DNA of 64,000 bases from Escherichia coli (lineage in GTDB: Bacteria; Pseudomonadota; Gammaproteobacteria; Enterobacterales; Enterobacteriaceae): NCBI RefSeq assembly GCF_002854065.1, contig NZ_CP024147.1. One strand, written 5' to 3'. Of this stretch, positions 1-10,273 are shown piece after piece (position 1 is the first letter of the stretch; each line of letters opens with the position of its first letter). A program made the position numbers and the translations under genes. The notes under the pieces are model-generated. The model was given only the letters and a program-made list of their open reading frames with translations. It was not told the origin of the DNA and did not search any database.

Positions 1-232
1 TGAGGCCAACGCCCATAATGCGGGCAGTTGCCCGGCATCCAACGCCATTCATGGCCATATCAATGATTTTCTGGTGCGTACCGGGTTGAGAAGCGGTGTA
101 AGTGAACTGCAGTTGCCATGTTTTACGGCAGTGAGAGCAGAGATAGCGCTGATGTCCGGCGGTGCTTTTGCCGTTACGCACCACCCCGTCAGTAGCTGAA
201 CAGGAGGGACAGCTGATAGAAACAGAAGCCAC
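1..232 (-). CDS. insA: IS1 InsA, 5' portion (3' end beyond window edge)
   Basis: Position-mapped from the complete copies (insA starts at IS1 position 56). Confidence 0.7.
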
Positions 233-287
233 TGGAGCACCTCAAAAACACCATCATACACTAAATCAGTAAGTTGGCAGCATCACC
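1..287 (-). mobile_element. IS1, partial copy in inverted orientation (IRL end at 287; remainder outside window)
   Basis: Reverse complement of the first 287 bp of the complete IS1 copies at 3932 and 9506; terminal ...GCATCACC at 281-287; sequence variant matches the 9506 copy. Confidence 0.85.
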
Positions 288-327
288 CGTCAGATGAAAG
301 AATTAATCGGTAACGAAGGAGATATTC

Positions 328-498
328 ATGTCACTTGCAACCACAGTGAAGGAGAGCAAGTTACAGAGACGCATGTACACGCAGAAAGCTCTCTGGTATC
401 GCCATAATGGCGACCGCGAAGGAATGCGGGTATGCCTTAATTTGTCCCGAGTCGAAGTATTAAATCAGCGTTATTTCCTTGGGCCGTGTCCATTCTGA
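328..498 (+). CDS. Hypothetical small protein (56 aa), prophage
   Basis: ATG at 328 preceded by AAGGAGA RBS; ends TGA 496-498; below the 60-aa cutoff of the ORF track; no recognisable motif. Confidence 0.3.
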   Translation: MSLATTVKESKLQRRMYTQKALWYRHNGDREGMRVCLNLSRVEVLNQRYFLGPCPF

Positions 499-506
499 GG
501 TGAATT

Positions 507-1214
507 ATGGATTTGAATAAATTCGATGAGCCATTCAGCCCTGAAGATATCGAATGGCGAATACAGCAAAGCGGTAAAACACGCGATGGCAAGGTGTGGG
601 CTATGGTGCTGGCTTATGTAACGAACCGGGCAATCATGAAACGCCTGAACGATGTTTGCGGCAAAGCAGGATGGCGCAATGAATACCGCGATATTCCCAA
701 CAACGGCGGAGTTGAATGCGGCATATCAATCAGGATTGATTCCGAATGGGTAACCAAATGGGATGCTGCTGAAAACACGCAGGTAGAAGCCGTCAAAGGT
801 GGTCGTTCCGGCGCAATGAAGCGCGCTGCCGTTCAATGGGGAATCGGTCGGTATCTGTATAACCTTGAGGAAGGTTTCGCACAAACATCTCTCGATAAAA
901 AGCAGGGGTGGCACAGGGCAAAACTGAAGGATGGAACAGGATTTTACTGGCTCCCTCCATCGCTGCCGGGATGGGCAATACCAGCATCAGATAACAAACC
1001 ATCACCAGAAAATACCAACCAGAAATCTCCATCGGTTGACTGCGAACAAATCCTGAAAGACTTCAGCGATTATGCATCAACAGAAACTGACAAGAAAAAA
1101 CTCATCGAGCGTTATCAGCGTGACTGGCAATTAATGGCTGGCAACGAGGAGGCGCAGGCTAAATGCGTTCAGGTAATGAGCATCAGAGTTAACGAACTAA
1201 AACAGGCGGCATAA
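507..1214 (+). CDS. Phage single-strand annealing protein, Rad52/Sak-like
   Basis: 235 aa with KRAAVQWGIGRYLY-type motif recalled from Rad52/Sak annealases; immediately followed by ssb. Confidence 0.55.
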   Translation: MDLNKFDEPFSPEDIEWRIQQSGKTRDGKVWAMVLAYVTNRAIMKRLNDVCGKAGWRNEYRDIPNNGGVECGISIRIDSEWVTKWDAAENTQVEAVKGGRSGAMKRAAVQWGIGRYLYNLEEGFAQTSLDKKQGWHRAKLKDGTGFYWLPPSLPGWAIPASDNKPSPENTNQKSPSVDCEQILKDFSDYASTETDKKKLIERYQRDWQLMAGNEEAQAKCVQVMSIRVNELKQAA

Positions 1215-1721
1215 ATGGCAAGCAGAGGCGTAAATAAGGTGATTATCCTTGGTCGGGTAGGACAAGACCCGGAAGTTCGATACTCACCATCAGGAACAGC
1301 GTTCGCTAACCTGACAATAGCCACGTCAGAACAATGGCGAGATAAAAATACTGGCGAGCAAAAGGAATTGACTGAATGGCATCGTGTTGCTGTATCCGGG
1401 AAACTGGCTGAGGTCGTGGGGCAGTATGTGAAAAAAGGTGATCAGATTTATTTCGAGGGAATGCTGAGAACCAGAAAGTGGAAAGACCAGTCAGGGCAAG
1501 ACCGTTACACAACCGAGGTTCATGTCGGAATTAATGGCGTGATGCAAATGCTTGGCGGCATTGGCGACAGCAAACAACAAGCAGCCAGCAGGCAATCACA
1601 GAAGCCACAGCAGCAATCATCACCAGCACAACACAACGAACCTCCGATGGATTTTGACGACGATATACCCTTTGCACCAGTAACTCTCCCCTTCCCTCGT
1701 CACGCTATTCACGCAATTTAA
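1215..1721 (+). CDS. ssb: Single-stranded DNA-binding protein, prophage-encoded, with 15-aa extension past the DDDIPF tail
   Basis: [23 protein letters not shown]... OB-fold N-terminus near-identical to enterobacterial SSB; acidic DFDDDIPF motif present but followed by [15 protein letters not shown]. Confidence 0.9.
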
Positions 1722-1734
1722 TCAGGAGAAAATC

Positions 1735-2031
1735 ATGCCAGCGCCTCTGTATGGTGCGGATGACGCGCGCCGCTGTTCCGGCAATTCCGTATCGGAGGTG
1801 CTGGATAAATTCAGGAAAAACTACAACCGGATAATGTCGCTACCGCAGGAAACGAAAGAGGAAAAGGAATTTCGCCACTGTATATGGCTTGCAGAGAAAG
1901 AAGAACGCGAGCGAATTTACCAGACATCAATCCGACCATTCCGCAAAGCCACATATACCCACTTCCCTGAATATATCGACCCGCGCCTGCGTAATTACCG
2001 CTCACGCTATGGCGCTATCAGTAATGACTGA
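1735..2031 (+). CDS. Hypothetical phage protein (98 aa)
   Basis: ORF following ssb with AGGAGA RBS; no recognisable motif. Confidence 0.45.
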
Positions 2032-2041
2032 GGAATTTACC

Positions 2042-2206
2042 ATGAGAGGACTTGCATACAATCCCGGAATTCTTCCGGCAGAAATGATTATTCGCCAACG
2101 CGTAAAGCCAATGCCATCGAGAGAGGAATTGCTTAAGAGAAAGAGTTTCGGTTCTGTTAATGACAACAAATATCTGAATGCGATGTGGCTGAGTGGGAAG
2201 AAATGA
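2042..2206 (+). CDS. Hypothetical small phage protein (54 aa)
   Basis: ATG at 2042 with GAGGA RBS; stop overlaps next start as ATGA (2203-2206). Confidence 0.3.
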
Positions 2207-2685
2207 AACAAATGACACTAATTGAGATGGATGGATTTCTGAAAGGTAAATGCATCCCATGTGATTTAAAGGTTAACGAAACAAACGCTGAATATCTTGT
2301 GCGTAAGTTCGGTGAACTTGAATCAAAACTAGAAACGGCGTTGCGGGAGTGTAGTTCTGCTGGAATCACGATTGATAACCTTGAGGCCAAGTGCGCGAAG
2401 ATGGCTGCTGAAAATACCTCGCTTAAGCAATCTGAGAAGGAATTTAATGACTTTTGTCGTGAGGAGTTTAGCGAATGGGAAGATGATGTTACTGAAACCC
2501 CAGCCACCGATGCTTTCCTGGCTGAAGTACGGGCGCAGGGGGTAGAGATGTACGCAGATAACCTCGACAACGGAGCAGACGACGCAGAACGAGGTGGTTT
2601 TGATTATGCCGCTAAGTTTCTACGCGGTGAGGCGTCTAGTGTACGCTTGTTCGCCGACCAGCTTCGCAAAGGAGGCAACCAGTGA
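2203..2685 (+). CDS. Hypothetical phage protein, possibly Ead/Ea22-like
   Basis: ATGA start/stop overlap with upstream ORF; acidic protein in a run of coupled small phage genes. Confidence 0.45.
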
Positions 2686-3161
2686 GCAAGATTAACTATC
2701 AGGCACTGCGTGAGGCGGCGGAACGTGCAATTCCAGCAATGGAACGCCTGTTAATGTTGCCAGTTGATGATGATTTGTTAAGTGAACAGGAACTTAAAGA
2801 TTACGGTGTGGATATTGATGCGCTCAACGCCTTCAAATTTCTGACCGGACCAGAAACCGTGCTGGCGCTGCTGGATGAGCTGGAAAGAAAACAGCAATAC
2901 ATCAAATCCCGAGACCAGGAGAACGAGGATATTGCGCTAACGGTAGGGAAGCTGCGCGTTGAGCTGGAAGCCGCAGAGAAGCGCATTGCTGAGCTGGAGT
3001 TGCGGGAGGTTGTGCTTCCGCAATGCTATAGCATGTTGCATCGCGTCGATTTTGACGAGCCTTACCACACTGAAATGGTTTACAGGCAGCATCAGGTTCT
3101 TGAGGCACTGCACAACGCTGGAATAAACGTCACCGAAGCAGGTAAAGGAGAGGCATCATGA
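2682..3161 (+). CDS. Ead/Ea22-like phage protein
   Basis: GTG start with AAAGGAGG RBS overlapping previous stop; N-terminal ...YQALREAAERA... resembles Ea22-like proteins as recalled. Confidence 0.45.
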   Translation: MSKINYQALREAAERAIPAMERLLMLPVDDDLLSEQELKDYGVDIDALNAFKFLTGPETVLALLDELERKQQYIKSRDQENEDIALTVGKLRVELEAAEKRIAELELREVVLPQCYSMLHRVDFDEPYHTEMVYRQHQVLEALHNAGINVTEAGKGEAS

Positions 3162-3670
3162 GCACTATCACAAGAGAATGGCTGCAGCAGGCTATCAACG
3201 ATTATGAAAGCGTTCGTGATGAGCTTCCTTTCGGGCTTGATGATTACCAGGGGAATATCCTGGCTGCCCTGCGTATCGCACTGGCATCGCTGGAAGCAGA
3301 GCCGGTGGCGTGGAAGGTAACATTCACGCAAATTGACCGTGAATATAACACGTTCACTGGTATGTATTCTGACAAAGCAGAAGTCGAACGGTGGGTGCGG
3401 CTGCATAAAGCATGTAATTTTCGGGCAGATATAACACCGCTTTATACCGCCAAGCCAGTGCCGGTAACTCCGGATGGTTGGATAAGCTGTAGTGAGCGAA
3501 TGCCAGAGGACGGTCAGCACGTAATTATTTTATGTGATGGCGCATTCGTTCTTTATGCGCAATATCGAGACGGAGAGTTTTTCGATATTGTCCGCAATGG
3601 TGATGAATTTTTCGAAACACAGAGTCGCAATGTAACCGACTGGATGCAACTACCAGAACCTCCCCTTTGA
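3158..3670 (+). CDS. DUF551-domain phage protein
   Basis: C-terminal W-x-SCSERMPEDG ... TDWMQLPEPP motif typical of DUF551. Confidence 0.55.
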   Translation: MSTITREWLQQAINDYESVRDELPFGLDDYQGNILAALRIALASLEAEPVAWKVTFTQIDREYNTFTGMYSDKAEVERWVRLHKACNFRADITPLYTAKPVPVTPDGWISCSERMPEDGQHVIILCDGAFVLYAQYRDGEFFDIVRNGDEFFETQSRNVTDWMQLPEPPL

Positions 3671-3766
3671 TAGCTAAGCTTATACATATCTTTTACATCA
3701 GCAATCTATTGTTAATCTCCAATCAATGTTACGTTGTCATCTCTCTCATGCTTTGGAGGTAGTGAT

Positions 3767-3958
3767 ATGTCTTGTCCAAAATGCGGTTCTGGAAATATTG
3801 CAAAAGAAAAAACAATGCGTGGATGGTCTGATGATTATGTGTGCTGCGATTGCGGATACAACGACTCTAAAGACGCATTTGGAGAGCGTGGTAAAAACGA
3901 GTTTGTCAAAATTAATAAAGAACGCGAAGGCGGTGATGCTGCCAACTTACTGATTTAG
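3767..3958 (+). CDS. Small zinc-ribbon protein (CxxC...CxxC); native last 4 codons displaced by IS1
   Basis: GGAGG RBS, MSCPKCGSGN...CCDCG; reading frame runs into IS1 at 3932; native C-terminus ...EREG-NEKS* reconstructable across the insertion. Confidence 0.5.
   Translation: MSCPKCGSGNIAKEKTMRGWSDDYVCCDCGYNDSKDAFGERGKNEFVKINKEREGGDAANLLI
3923..3931. repeat. 9-bp target site duplication (CGCGAAGGC), left copy
   Basis: Identical 9-mer directly abuts both ends of the IS1 at 3932-4699. Confidence 0.9.
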
Positions 3959-3986
3959 TGTATGATGGTGTTTTTGAGGTGCTCCA

Positions 3987-4262
3987 GTGGCTTCTGTTTC
4001 TATCAGCTGTCCCTCCTGTTCAGCTACTGACGGGGTGGTGCGTAACGGCAAAAGCACTGCCGGACATCAGCGCTATCTCTGCTCTCACTGCCGTAAAACA
4101 TGGCAACTGCAGTTCACTTACACCGCTTCTCAACCCGGTACGCACCAGAAAATCATTGATATGGCCATGAATGGCGTTGGATGCCGGGCAACCGCCCGCA
4201 TTATGGGCGTTGGCCTCAACACGATTTTCCGCCATTTAAAAAACTCAGGCCGCAGTCGGTAA
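3987..4262 (+). CDS. insA: IS1 InsA
   Basis: 91 aa [18 protein letters not shown]... Confidence 0.9.
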
Positions 4263-4684
4263 CCTCGCGCATACAGCCGGGCAGTGACGTCATCGTCTGC
4301 GCGGAAATGGACGAACAGTGGGGATACGTCGGGGCTAAATCGCGCCAGCGCTGGCTGTTTTACGCGTATGACAGGCTCCGGAAGACGGTTGTTGCGCACG
4401 TATTCGGTGAACGCACTATGGCGACGCTGGGGCGTCTTATGAGCCTGCTGTCACCCTTTGACGTGGTGATATGGATGACGGATGGCTGGCCGCTGTATGA
4501 ATCCCGCCTGAAGGGAAAGCTGCACGTAATCAGCAAGCGATATACGCAGCGAATTGAGCGGCATAACCTGAATCTGAGGCAGCACTTGGCACGGCTGGGA
4601 CGGAAGTCGCTGTCGTTCTCAAAATCGGTGGAGCTGCATGACAAAGTCATCGGGCATTATCTGAACATAAAACACTATCAATAA
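4181..4684 (+). CDS. insB: IS1 InsB frame (made as InsAB' by -1 frameshift)
   Basis: 167-aa ORF overlapping insA in -1 frame; A6C slippery motif intact. Confidence 0.85.
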
Positions 4685-4699
4685 GTTGGAGTCATTACC

Positions 4700-5245: not shown

Positions 5246-5437
5246 ATGACCGATACCAGCCTGATTCCTGAGAAAGAAGTGATGAACAAGCTCGGTGTTT
5301 CATCACGTCAGACAATCTGGAACTATACCAAACGGCACGGATTTCCGAAGCCAGTCAGAACCCACCCCAAATCATACCTTCGTGAAGCTGTTGAAGGGTG
5401 GATTCTTAACGGTGGCGTTAATCAGAAATGCTCCTGA
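5246..5437 (+). CDS. alpA: AlpA-family phage transcriptional regulator / excisionase-like
   Basis: 63-aa HTH protein resembling AlpA (MTDTSLIPEKEVMNKLGVSSRQTIWNYTKRHGFPKP...); adjacent to integrase. Confidence 0.7.
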   Translation: MTDTSLIPEKEVMNKLGVSSRQTIWNYTKRHGFPKPVRTHPKSYLREAVEGWILNGGVNQKCS

Positions 5438-6596
5438 TGTGCCAGAACAATTTATCAGCGTGAAGCTCATACGCTTTGCGCTGAGCCTCTATCCAGTCGT
5501 GTTTATTGTATACGGACATTATCCCGCCAAGTTCATGACCGAGCATTCGCTCAGTAACATGAGGCTCGACATTCATCTCGGACAGACGTGTAACAAGCGT
5601 TCTTCTGAAATCGTGTGTTCGCCAGTAACCTAGATCCATCCCTCCCCTTATTCTATTTACGAATCGGTTGGCTGCAGCGATGCTGATCGGTTTGTTTATG
5701 TCTTCTCCAGGGAAAAGAACATCATTGTACGTTGTCATGGCCTTTTCGAGGAAAGGCTTAATTTGTTCGAAGATTGGACGGCGGATAACATTACCCATCT
5801 TGCTATGCTCTTTCGGTACGGTCCATACGTTTTCCAGCAGGTCAAATTCTGTCTTTTTTGCCAGCCTAAGCTCTGAGAGCCTCGCCCCCCACAGCATAAG
5901 CATCTGATGAAGTAGCTTATTTGACGTAGACGCACGGCTTCTTTCAATAGCAAGCCAAATCTTAGCCAGTTCGTGATACGACAGTACCCGATCCCCTACC
6001 TCAGCGCGGGAGCCGAAGTCCCTTGGTTGGATGCTCATAATTGCGCAACTATCTATCAACTGACGCCGCATGCACCAACTTATTGCTGATCTTAGTTGAC
6101 TTAGCACCTGCCTTGCTCGGCGTGGATTATCTCTTTCTTCTTCGGTAAGCAGGTCAACCCATTGCTTAACCGTGATAGAAGATGCCGGACGATTAGGAAA
6201 GGCGTCATGCATGCGCTTCATAACCGTTGATCGGTAAAGTGCCTGGGTCTTTTCTCTGAGAGTTGTAGAGACGTAGTTGTCGAACCAGTAGTCGAGACAC
6301 TGGGCGACCGTCATGGAGTTCTCCACCTTCTCTTCAAAATAAGTGCGTGGATCCGTTCCTGAGAAATAGAGCTTTCGCAAGTCAGCAGTGATCTGTCTGG
6401 CATCCTTCAAAGACAGGGATGGGTATCGACCAAGCCCAAGTCGATTAGGCTTGCCATGCCAGCGATAGCGGTACTGGAACTGGATGACCCCCTTCGGTGA
6501 AATTCGTACGCTGAGGCCATCGGCATCAGCCACTTCTTGTGGGCCCGAATATGGTTTACCATAAATACTACGCAGTTTTGTGTCGCTTATAGCCAT
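5418..6596 (-). CDS. int: Tyrosine-type site-specific integrase (P4/CP4-57-like)
   Basis: 392 aa; C-terminal catalytic region with R...HDFRRT...LGH...Y motifs. Confidence 0.9.
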   Translation of the reverse strand: MAISDTKLRSIYGKPYSGPQEVADADGLSVRISPKGVIQFQYRYRWHGKPNRLGLGRYPSLSLKDARQITADLRKLYFSGTDPRTYFEEKVENSMTVAQCLDYWFDNYVSTTLREKTQALYRSTVMKRMHDAFPNRPASSITVKQWVDLLTEEERDNPRRARQVLSQLRSAISWCMRRQLIDSCAIMSIQPRDFGSRAEVGDRVLSYHELAKIWLAIERSRASTSNKLLHQMLMLWGARLSELRLAKKTEFDLLENVWTVPKEHSKMGNVIRRPIFEQIKPFLEKAMTTYNDVLFPGEDINKPISIAAANRFVNRIRGGMDLGYWRTHDFRRTLVTRLSEMNVEPHVTERMLGHELGGIMSVYNKHDWIEAQRKAYELHADKLFWHIRSISD

Positions 6597-6777
6597 AAAT
6601 AATATTTGGTACGCTCAGAAATAATGGTTTGGTACACATCTGGTACACAATATCACATGGACAACAGCGCACAGTAAACAACTATATTTGACGTTCGTAG
6701 ACATACTCAGGTGAAAAAATGGTTGTTTTTCGAGTTATAACAGACAGTTAATTAACTACAGTGGACAATGCTAGACA

Positions 6778-8202
6778 ATGACAGACGCAGATAAACAACC
6801 TACCTTCCTCTTTCACGATTACGAAACCTTTGGCACGCACCCCGCGTTAGATCGCCCTGCACAGTTCGCAGCCATTCGCACCGATAGCGAATTCAATGTC
6901 ATCGGAGAACCCGAAGTCTTTTACTGCAAGCCCGCTGATGACTATTTACCCCAGCCAGGAGCAGTATTAATTACCGGTATTACCCCGCAGGAAGCACGGG
7001 CGAAAGGAGAAAACGAAGCCGCGTTTGCCGCCCGTATTCACTTGCTTTTTACCGTACCGAAGACCTGTATTCTGGGCTACAACAATGTGCGTTTCGACGA
7101 CGAAGTCACACGCAACATTTTTTATCGTAATTTCTACGATCCTTACGCCTGGAGCTGGCAAAACCGCAATTCGCGCTGGGATCTGCTTGACGTGATGCGC
7201 GCCTGCTATGCCCTGCGCCCGGACGGCATCAACTGGCCGGAAAACGACGACGGTCTGCCGAGCTTCCGCCTGGAACATCTCACCAAGGCCAACGGTATTG
7301 AACACAGTAACGCCCATGATGCGATGGCCGACGTTTACGCGACCATCGCCATGGCGAAGCTGGTGAAGGCCCAACAGCCAAAGCTGTTTGATTATCTGTA
7401 TGCCTACCGGGGCAAAAACAAGCTGATGACGCTGATTGACGTCCCGCAGATGAAGCCACTGGTGCATGTCTCGGGAATGTTTGGCGCCTGGCGCGGAAAC
7501 ACCAGCTGGATTGCGCCGCTGGCCTGGCATCCGGATAACCGTAATGCGGTGATCATGGTCGACCTGGCGGGCGACATCGCCCCGCTGCTCGAGCTGGATG
7601 CCGATACGCTGCGCGAGCGCCTGTATACGCCGAAGGCCGAGCTCGGCGACAGTTCGCCGGTGCCGATTAAGCTGGTGCATCTGAATAAGTGCCCGGTGCT
7701 GGCGCAGGCCAATACCCTGCGCCCAGAAGACGCTGACCGTTTAGGCATTAACCGACAGCACTGCCTGGATAACCTGAAACTGCTGCGCGATAACCCGCAG
7801 GTGCGCGAGAAGGTGGTGGCGATTTTTGCTGAAGCCGAGCCGTTTGTCGCATCGGACAACGTCGACGCCCAGCTTTATAACGGTTTCTTTAGCGACGCCG
7901 ACCGCGCGGCGATGAAAATCGTGCTGGAGACCGAGCCGCGCAATCTGCCGGCGCTGGACATTACCTTCGCCGACCCGCGTATTGAGAAGCTGCTGTTTAA
8001 CTTCCGCGCGCGCAACTTCCCCGGCACGCTGGATGAAAACGAGCAACAGCGCTGGCTGGAACACCGTCGGCAGATCTTCACCCCGGAATTTTTACAGGCC
8101 TACGCCCAGCAACTGGAGATGTTGTACGGTCAGTATGAGGGGAATAACGAGAAGCTATCGCTGCTGAAGGCGCTGTATCAGTACGTGCAGGAGATTGTTT
8201 AA
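6778..8202 (+). CDS. sbcB: Exodeoxyribonuclease I
   Basis: 474 aa, near-colinear with E. coli SbcB (FLFHDYETFGTHPALDRPAQFAAIRTD...). Confidence 0.95.
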   Translation: MTDADKQPTFLFHDYETFGTHPALDRPAQFAAIRTDSEFNVIGEPEVFYCKPADDYLPQPGAVLITGITPQEARAKGENEAAFAARIHLLFTVPKTCILGYNNVRFDDEVTRNIFYRNFYDPYAWSWQNRNSRWDLLDVMRACYALRPDGINWPENDDGLPSFRLEHLTKANGIEHSNAHDAMADVYATIAMAKLVKAQQPKLFDYLYAYRGKNKLMTLIDVPQMKPLVHVSGMFGAWRGNTSWIAPLAWHPDNRNAVIMVDLAGDIAPLLELDADTLRERLYTPKAELGDSSPVPIKLVHLNKCPVLAQANTLRPEDADRLGINRQHCLDNLKLLRDNPQVREKVVAIFAEAEPFVASDNVDAQLYNGFFSDADRAAMKIVLETEPRNLPALDITFADPRIEKLLFNFRARNFPGTLDENEQQRWLEHRRQIFTPEFLQAYAQQLEMLYGQYEGNNEKLSLLKALYQYVQEIV

Positions 8203-9505: not shown

Positions 9506-9560
9506 GGTGATGCTGCCAACTTACTGATTTAGTGTATGATGGTGTTTTTGAGGTGCTCCA

Positions 9561-9836
9561 GTGGCTTCTGTTTCTATCAGCTGTCCCTCCTGTTCAGCTA
9601 CTGACGGGGTGGTGCGTAACGGCAAAAGCACCGCCGGACATCAGCGCTATCTCTGCTCTCACTGCCGTAAAACATGGCAACTGCAGTTCACTTACACCGC
9701 TTCTCAACCCGGTACGCACCAGAAAATCATTGATATGGCCATGAATGGCGTTGGATGCCGGGCAACTGCCCGCATTATGGGCGTTGGCCTCAACACGATT
9801 TTACGTCACTTAAAAAACTCAGGCCGCAGTCGGTAA
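9561..9836 (+). CDS. insA: IS1 InsA
   Basis: 91 aa. Confidence 0.9.
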
Positions 9837-10258
9837 CCTCGCGCATACAGCCGGGCAGTGACGTCATCGTCTGCGCGGAAATGGACGAACAGTGGGGCTA
9901 TGTCGGGGCTAAATCGCGCCAGCGCTGGCTGTTTTACGCGTATGACAGTCTCCGGAAGACGGTTGTTGCGCACGTATTCGGTGAACGCACTATGGCGACG
10001 CTGGGGCGTCTTATGAGCCTGCTGTCACCCTTTGACGTGGTGATATGGATGACGGATGGCTGGCCGCTGTATGAATCCCGCCTGAAGGGAAAGCTGCACG
10101 TAATCAGCAAGCGATATACGCAGCGAATTGAGCGGCATAACCTGAATCTGAGGCAGCACCTGGCACGGCTGGGACGGAAGTCGCTGTCGTTCTCAAAATC
10201 GGTGGAGCTGCATGACAAAGTCATCGGGCATTATCTGAACATAAAACACTATCAATAA
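9755..10258 (+). CDS. insB: IS1 InsB frame
   Basis: 167 aa; A6C motif intact. Confidence 0.85.
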
Positions 10259-10273
10259 GTTGGAGTCATTACC

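Follow-up and report, generated by a model that had tools for sequence, protein, structure and literature searches.

The window analysed here is a stretch of 64,000 nucleotides from Escherichia coli that begins inside a copy of IS1, continues through a series of phage genes, and reaches the end of a prophage and the chromosomal gene beside it. The features relevant to this study, in order along the window, are as follows.

1–287, minus strand: incomplete IS1, truncated by the edge of the window; its IRL end spans 265–287
328–498, plus strand: 56-aa ORF of the lambdoid early-left type represented by Sf6 gp29, HK97 gp42 and HK022 gp42
507–1214, plus strand: intact ORF with an ATG start for a single-strand annealing protein of 235 aa (Rad52/Sak N-domain plus Erf-type C-domain)
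1215–1721, plus strand: ssb, an intact ORF with an ATG start for a phage SSB of 168 aa (Pfam PF00436)
1675–1721, plus strand: tail block of ssb (last codons plus stop), a mosaic boundary whose DNA is identical to the end of Sf6 gene 26
1735–2031, plus strand: abc2, for anti-RecBCD protein 2, 98 aa (Pfam PF11043)
2042–2206, plus strand: DUF2737 small protein (Pfam PF10930, E 4e-28)
2203–3670, plus strand: three ‘ea’-region genes of the early-left operon, the first encoding a PHROG 614 protein
2682–3161, plus strand: Ead/Ea22 protein of the ‘ea’ region
3158–3670, plus strand: DUF551 protein of the ‘ea’ region
3932–4699, plus strand: full-length IS1 of 768 bp, flanked by the 9-bp target duplication CGCGAAGGC
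5246–5437, plus strand: AlpA/Xis-like HTH gene at the prophage end
5418–6596, minus strand: tyrosine integrase (Pfam Arm-DNA-bind_3 and Phage_integrase)
6778–8202: chromosomal sbcB, adjoining the prophage end

The annealase and ssb genes meet at the junction gcggcaTAAATGgca, where the TAA of the former (1212–1214) abuts the ATG of the latter (1215–1217). The same abutting stop and start codons are conserved in HK75, epsilon34, Sf6, phiKp_30, HZ41 and E. coli c1-17, and this geometry suggests that the two genes are translationally coupled. The original prediction, made from the sequence of the window, had described this ORF pair and its TAA-ATG junction at 1212–1217, as well as the 56-aa ORF upstream (328–498) and the IS1 edge beyond it, and each of these features is present as described. 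It stopped one gene short, and thus abc2 did not appear in it. Annealase, ssb and abc2 are contiguous across 507–2031, with intergenic gaps of 0 and 13 nt, such that abc2 starts thirteen bases after ssb. All four ORFs of the module are full length, and their lengths equal those found in plaque-forming phages.

In the intact phages HK75, epsilon34, P22, ST64T and Sf6, the genes follow the order PL, N/Nun, cIII, kil, small ORF, annealase, SSB/Abc1, optional nuclease, Abc2, DUF2737, ea genes, xis and int. The DUF2737 gene lies directly after abc2 in P22, HK75 and epsilon34, as it does here. The window carries contiguous genes for annealase, SSB and anti-RecBCD protein with no nuclease gene, followed downstream by ea genes, an Xis-like gene and int, and the kil side is missing owing to IS1. 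Pfam and PHROGs scans of ORFs from 328 to 3670 turned up no nuclease family. The junction between int and sbcB is the same in E. coli c1-17 and CUWW06. We therefore read the block 507–2031, with a probability of roughly 0.85, as a Rec module of the HK75 type, located in the early-left operon of a lambdoid prophage that is integrated beside sbcB.

The 56-aa ORF that precedes this block matches PHROG 1723 (E 9e-36), and tblastn recovers it from 69 phage records at 48–100% identity, including Sf6 gp29 and the HK97 and HK022 counterparts. P22 Arf and ST64T Orf66 were considered as possible identities and rejected, since the ORF has no similarity to either of them; for the same reason, the ‘recombinase’ label of its PHROG is not taken as a functional assignment. 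Of 30 differences from HK75 counted in the 56-aa frame, 16 affect third codon positions, versus 1 of 11 in an overlapping gp30-like frame, which is truncated by IS1.

Identity of the genes is a separate matter from their activity in this genome, which may depend on the insertion sequences. The left IS1 lies 220 bp upstream of the annealase gene, between the module and its promoter side (kil/cIII/PL), and may cut the module off from PL. Together with positions 3932–4218 it forms an inverted repeat of 287 nt with 99% identity; its IRL (265–287) matches exactly, and homology to phage DNA begins at 288. If this copy arose by simple insertion at 288, then the 9-bp duplication expected at its far end would be CGTCAGATG. 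The right IS1 (3932–4699), both ends of which are exact, sits within a small Zn-ribbon (Lar-like) ORF and has the structure of a simple insertion. An inversion of 288–3931 between the two IS1 copies was also considered, and was rejected because the right copy keeps its 9-bp target duplication. A third IS1 (9506–10273) interrupts tsuA/yeeE.

These insertions give substance to the best-surviving alternative, which concerns activity here and leaves the identity of the genes untouched: the module could be a silent relic, with intact genes cut off from PL and inactive in a defective, IS1-riddled prophage. Three IS1 copies occur in the first 10.3 kb, one of them directly upstream of the module, and the related prophage of E. 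coli c1-17 has suffered an IS1-associated deletion that extends from the Q gene to cIII. Moreover, there is no convincing promoter between IS1 and the module, where 3 consensus-like sites occur compared with 5.2 expected. However, all four ORFs equal in length those of plaque-forming phages, the SSB is 100% identical to that of HK75, and the right IS1 is a simple insertion whose 9-bp duplication is intact, which means that no rearrangement between IS1 copies took place. N-modified transcription can also pass through IS elements. We regard a silent module as a serious possibility that falls somewhat short of even odds.

The product of the second gene is an SSB by every profile applied to it, as had been proposed originally. 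It matches Pfam PF00436 (E 1.6e-36), TIGR00621 (166.9 bits against a cut-off of 53.95) and PHROGs (E 2e-66). Its residues 1–153 align with residues 1–178 of E. coli SSB, which is the full length of that protein (E 7e-58), and residues 1–115 match E. coli SSB crystal chains (E about 1e-53). The layout comprises an OB domain, a short linker, an internal tip motif, and finally an extension of 15 aa. The acidic DDDIPF tip is thus internal (residues 143–153) and is followed by residues 154–168, leaving no free terminal Phe, whereas the SSB of Sf6 ends at ...DIPF. With a tip that is not C-terminal, the protein may differ from E. coli SSB in how it binds its partners.

The origin of the extension can be traced in DNA. 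The last 14 SSB residues and the stop codon are encoded by a block of 46 nt that recurs unchanged at the end of Sf6 gene 26, an unrelated HNH nuclease gene, where it runs straight into the start of abc2 just as it does in the window; epsilon34 ssb ends in the identical block. This tail block is present in 26 phage records, in nearly all of them at 100% identity. In the Klebsiella phage phiKp_30, ssb is canonical and the HNH gene after it has an internal deletion but retains the tail block, and HZ41 combines an SSB body of the Sf6 type with the extended tail. The extension is probably the scar of an old in-frame deletion that removed the stop codon of ssb and almost all of the HNH gene. Because this scar is common to the viable phages HK75 and epsilon34, it is older than the IS1 insertion and independent of it. 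The DNA of the tail block has hardly diverged, 25 of the 26 copies having at least 98% identity, which leaves too little variation to gauge selection on the peptide. The result is a widespread phage SSB allele whose canonical C-terminal tip is masked by a probable relic of a nuclease gene; the SSBs of Sf6 and ES18 are described as unstudied (PMC12315714).

A masked tip invites the suggestion that the main role of this SSB lies in replication, or in the modulation of host SSB partners and defences, rather than in recombination as a partner of the annealase. Burial of the canonical tip by 15 extra residues is in keeping with such a role, as is the fact that Abc1 fills the slot after the annealase in P22 and ST64T, which indicates that an SSB is not obligatory. 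Nevertheless, ssb directly follows the annealase gene in all of the relatives examined, SSB genes are regular components of lambdoid Rec modules (PMC12315714), and the SSB of the HK620 module stimulates its own annealase (PMC5928155). We therefore consider a primarily non-recombinational role unlikely.

The first gene of the block encodes a protein with a Rad52-type annealing domain. Its residues 4–136 align with positions 7–153 of the 153 positions of Pfam PF04098 (Rad52_Rad22) at 93 bits, compared with a cut-off of 20.3 (E 2.3e-26), and all 120 of the annealase homologues listed carry this same domain. In a fold search with the predicted model, the closest structures are phage 80alpha Sak, human RAD52 and Mgm101; the next match scores 6.6, and lambda Red-beta scores 5.6. 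Foldseek with the full-length model ranks the same proteins at the top, but weakly. The model thus has the features of a Rad52-type fold, including a beta-beta-beta-alpha core. Searches of the PDB by sequence, whether started from the protein alone or from a profile of 31 sequences, recovered no significant RAD52 or Sak chain, and their sole matches were weak ones to a WW domain (PRP40, E 0.1–0.66). That null result says nothing either way about family membership, and as a consequence of it the structural evidence for the annealase rests on a predicted model. Residues K105 and R106, located in MKRAAVQWGIGRYLY, are invariant in 31 homologues, and they may be the equivalents of RAD52 K152 and R153.

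The 235-aa protein is a four-part chimera. A Rad52/Sak-type N-domain (residues 1 to about 125) is followed by a conserved Trp-rich meander of three strands (126–160), then by a disordered and variable linker (161–175), and finally by a three-helix C-terminal domain of the Erf type (about 176–235, encoded by nucleotides about 1032–1211). BLASTP aligns residues 157–235 of the annealase, 79 residues in all, with residues 134–205 of P22 Erf at 62% identity, and leaves the rest unaligned. It is this C-domain, common to P22 Erf, that explains why PHROGs and GenBank label the protein ‘Erf-like’. PHROG 1097 (‘Erf-like ssDNA annealing protein’) matches it at E 3e-128, and Orf-235 of ST64T is 91% identical to it. 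The protein is predicted to form rings and to anneal complementary strands.

The labels nonetheless raise the question of whether the whole protein is a member of the Erf family, as the name of PHROG 1097 and many GenBank records say (for example, the notes ‘similar to P22 erf’), and as the 62% identity of the C-terminal 79 residues might imply. This reading is very improbable. The protein has no match to the Pfam ERF profile (PF04404) at E ≤ 0.1, compared with 93 bits for Rad52_Rad22; the alignment with P22 Erf is confined to the C-domain; the fold search places Sak, RAD52 and Mgm101 first; and the C-domain also occurs on RecT proteins, and hence does not define Erf. Erf itself has no solved structure (PMC11611040). 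The original call of a Rad52-like annealase is thus borne out by both the PF04098 score and the predicted fold, and the HMM check proposed along with it likewise returns a match to the Rad52 profile and none to the ERF profile at E ≤ 0.1.

The C-domain can be considered as a unit in its own right. An exhaustive profile search of 1.84 billion proteins yielded 50 cluster representatives in which the domain is always C-terminal. Its carriers have N-domains of the Rad52, ERF or RecT type. A profile comparison with lambda Bet indicates no relation (probability 0.2%). In lambda, the Red-beta C-domain has two binding partners, lambda Exo and the SSB tail (PMC11611040), and RecT proteins are known from the literature to recognize the last seven residues of SSB. 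By analogy, the three-helix C-domain may be the part of the annealase on which partners dock. That a single C-domain is common to three annealase families bears on the shuffling of partner domains, a question left open by PMC12315714.

A strict link between the C-domain and Abc2 was considered and rejected, because one prophage encodes an Erf-type protein with the C-domain and has no Abc2 signal in the gene after ssb. In that context, the next gene encodes an SSB with a canonical tip, and the one after it a 101-aa protein without an Abc2 signal. The link was judged on this one context, two others being too short. A more elaborate proposal is that the C-domain serves as the receptor of a docking code, in which the 14-residue peptide at the end of SSB or of the Sf6 HNH protein is a portable ligand. 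This peptide would tether its carrier to the annealase or to Abc2-RecBCD, and would bury the SSB tip so that partners of host SSB are not recruited. We give this scheme little credence.

The third gene accounts for the feature of the module that at first appears to be a defect. Its product matches Pfam PF11043 (Anti-RecBCD_p2) from residue 1 to 98 across positions 1–97 of the 97-position profile (E 1.9e-60), and is 90.8% identical to P22 Abc2. Its sequence includes Pro68, the residue reported as the PpiB site of Abc2 (PMC9836394). Phages that encode Abc2 are characteristically without an exonuclease of their own (PMC9836394, PMC5928155), and no gene for a 5ʹ–3ʹ exonuclease lies beside the annealase gene in the module of the window, or in HK75, P22 or ST64T. 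The module would lack a nuclease gene of its own because Abc2 redirects the RecBCD enzyme of the host.

The original prediction had recognized a phage recombination cassette and suggested that its partner exonuclease was lost to the IS1 or lies beyond the window. The annealase/SSB cassette stands, and it is of the Abc2 type; the upstream exonuclease does not, because five intact phages (HK75, Sf6, epsilon34, ST64T and P22) have kil, cIII and N or Nun upstream and no exonuclease there. Optional nuclease genes are located downstream instead, between ssb and abc2, as exemplified by the HNH gene of Sf6 and the DnaQ-like gene of epsilon34. A Red-like annealase/exonuclease cassette that lost its exonuclease to IS1, or retains it just upstream of the window, is hardly credible even though IS1 borders the module at 287/288 and cuts short a small overlapping ORF, given those five intact phages of the same gene order, an abc2 gene downstream within the window, the many viable phages of the nuclease-free HK75 class, and the position of known nucleases between ssb and abc2. 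A nuclease gene was probably lost in an ancestor common to viable phages, and not through IS1. More generally, the lack of an exonuclease does not in itself mark a phage annealase as the remnant of a damaged cassette, since in modules of the Abc2 type this lack is by design.

How such a module would operate can be assembled from published work on P22, lambda and HK620. In P22, Abc2 binds RecC near its Chi-recognition region, and RecBCD modified in this manner is unresponsive to Chi and resembles a constitutively activated enzyme with raised 5ʹ-exonuclease activity (PMC9836394). A model has been offered in which the hijacked RecBCD resects phage DNA and loads the phage annealase instead of RecA, although the loading step is hypothetical even for P22 (PMC9836394). 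The annealase gene of HK620 is followed by one for an SSB, whose C-terminal tail mediates its stimulation of annealing (PMC5928155). By analogy with these systems, the operon of the window would be read from PL after induction, and its Abc2 would bind RecC of host RecBCD and render the enzyme blind to Chi, such that phage DNA ends are resected and the phage is not destroyed. Host RecBCD would thereby supply the helicase and the 5ʹ-exonuclease, the latter of which lambda obtains from its own Exo. The resulting single strand might be coated by the phage SSB, the host SSB or both, and the ring-forming annealase could then be recruited via its C-terminal domain to anneal complementary strands. Such annealing would support circularization, recombination-dependent replication and mosaic exchange. 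The contacts among the proteins of the module are likewise predictions by analogy.

The module is already known, widely distributed and already annotated. Table 1 of PMC12315714 assigns 325 lambdoid phages to functional classes according to their Rec modules; of these, the HK75 class (class C: anti-RecBCD and SSB present, nuclease absent, annealase present) includes 27 of the 325, and the nuclease-containing ES18 class includes 25 phages. Of the 5,426 complete E. coli genomes searched, 360 contain at least 80% of the 1.7-kb block 328–2031 and 1,109 match it in part. RefSeq labels the three products ‘Rad52/Rad22 family DNA repair protein’, ‘ssb’ and ‘phage anti-RecBCD protein’. The observations on the SSB tip and the C-domain may serve the study or engineering of phage recombinases, and leave current understanding unchanged.

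Among known systems, HK75 is the closest counterpart. Its genes 33–30 present the same order of small ORF, Rad52-like annealase, SSB-1, Abc2 and DUF2737, and the DNA is 95.8% identical over 2.4 kb. However, the window has IS1 at the left edge where HK75 has kil, cIII, Nun and PL, and its integrase and sbcB attachment site are unlike those of HK75. The arf-erf-abc1-abc2 module of P22 shares the operon position, an Abc2 that is 91% identical and an annealase C-domain that is 62% identical, and it also redirects host RecBCD in place of encoding a phage exonuclease. The two differ in that the annealing domain of the window protein is of the Rad52/Sak type rather than Erf, an SSB occupies the place of P22 Abc1, and the upstream 56-aa ORF is unrelated to Arf. 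ST64T combines the same annealase as the window with Abc1 instead of SSB.

Sf6, ES18 and epsilon34 encode the same annealase, the same kind of SSB and the same Abc2; Sf6 shares the 46-nt tail block before abc2, and epsilon34 shares it at the end of ssb. Both Sf6 (HNH) and epsilon34 (DnaQ-like) carry a nuclease gene between ssb and abc2, whereas the window retains only the last 14 HNH codons, fused to ssb. The gam-bet-exo module of lambda Red is the same in function and operon position, and likewise joins an annealase core of the Rad52 superfamily to a separate C-terminal domain that binds partners. Unlike the module described here, lambda supplies an exonuclease of its own and uses Gam to block RecBCD, and the window C-domain has no sequence similarity to lambda Bet. 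E. coli CUWW06 has a lambda-type gam-bet-exo module at the int/sbcB prophage site occupied here, and the contrast between the two is a textbook case of module swapping. Finally, the hkaM-sak4-ssb-abc2 module of HK620 likewise arranges an annealase gene, an SSB gene and then abc2, although its annealase is the RecA-like Sak4 and its SSB is not of the bacterial type.

The annealase (235 aa, Rad52/Sak type) closes with a three-helix domain that is a rare portable module. A search of 1.84 billion proteins yielded just 50 cluster representatives, and the domain occupies a C-terminal position in every carrier found, whether the carrier is a Rad52-type, an ERF-type or a RecT-type annealase. A strict tie between this domain and Abc2, whose gene follows ssb in the module, was not upheld. 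The two segments of the annealase considered here are as follows.

~1032-1211 (residues ~176-235), + strand: three-helix C-terminal domain, which P22 Erf also has
~882-986 (residues 126-160), + strand: conserved Trp-rich segment, GWHRAKLKDGTGFYWLPPSLPGWAIP

The Trp-rich segment is predicted with high confidence by the structure model to form a three-strand meander, and its residue spacing (W134...W156-x-x-P159) resembles that of a WW domain. Matches to PRP40 WW domains were weak and non-significant (E 0.1-0.66), and a Pfam search of the annealase returned no WW match.

The neighbouring SSB carries an unusual tail. The sequence DDDIPF, which is normally terminal in SSBs, has 15 extra residues behind it (SSB residues 154-168; window 1675-1721), and the SSB tip is buried by the extension. 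Sequence comparison revealed that a 46-nt block encoding the last 14 SSB residues plus the stop codon is also the end of epsilon34 ssb, and that an identical copy ends gene 26 of Sf6, an HNH nuclease gene that is unrelated to ssb. Phage phiKp_30 retains the block on a degraded HNH gene. The tail looks like a scar left by in-frame deletion of an HNH gene.

Upstream of the annealase, the phage DNA is bounded by the first of three IS1 copies located within 10.3 kb. In relatives, two overlapping small ORFs (types Sf6 gp30 and gp29) reside between kil and the annealase gene, and both frames can be recognized here.

1-287: IS1 copy 1, cut by the window edge, in the orientation opposite to copies 2 and 3
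274-303, + strand: promoter-like site straddling the IS1/phage junction, directed into the module
288-419: gp30-like frame, first 13 codons removed by IS1
328-498: gp29-like frame (56 aa), intact
3932-4699: IS1 copy 2, a simple insertion that interrupts a small Zn-ribbon (Lar-like) ORF and is accompanied by a 9-bp duplication, CGCGAAGGC
9506-10273: IS1 copy 3, which breaks the chromosomal tsuA/yeeE gene

A third-codon-position substitution bias is seen in the gp29-like frame. This ORF was also considered as P22 Arf, to which it is unrelated despite its PHROG label 'recombinase'. The promoter-like site (-35 TTGGCA within the IS1 end, 18-nt spacer, TG-AAGAAT) is a consensus match only, and shuffled controls have more such sites than the region itself.

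The prophage adjoins sbcB, and no tRNA genes were found in the whole 64-kb window.

within 5418-8202, - strand: prophage integrase adjoining sbcB (Arm-DNA-bind_3 and Phage_integrase)
6778-30000: chromosomal flank, in the order sbcB, tsuB, tsuA, plaP, his operon, ugd, gnd, then an O-antigen-type cluster

The cluster includes glycosyltransferase, FkbM methyltransferase and heptose-pathway genes, and a few E. coli strains match the flank at 99.9-100% identity. Over the stretch compared with E. coli CUWW06, the window is 777 bp longer, which is as much as one IS1 and its 9-bp duplication would add and corresponds to the third IS1. E. coli c1-17 has the same int/sbcB junction and, like the window, a Rad52-SSB-Abc2 module of this kind; its prophage has undergone an IS1-associated deletion on the side of Q. 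CUWW06 shares this junction and carries a lambda-type gam-bet-exo module. The presence of different Rec modules at one int/sbcB site is module swapping.
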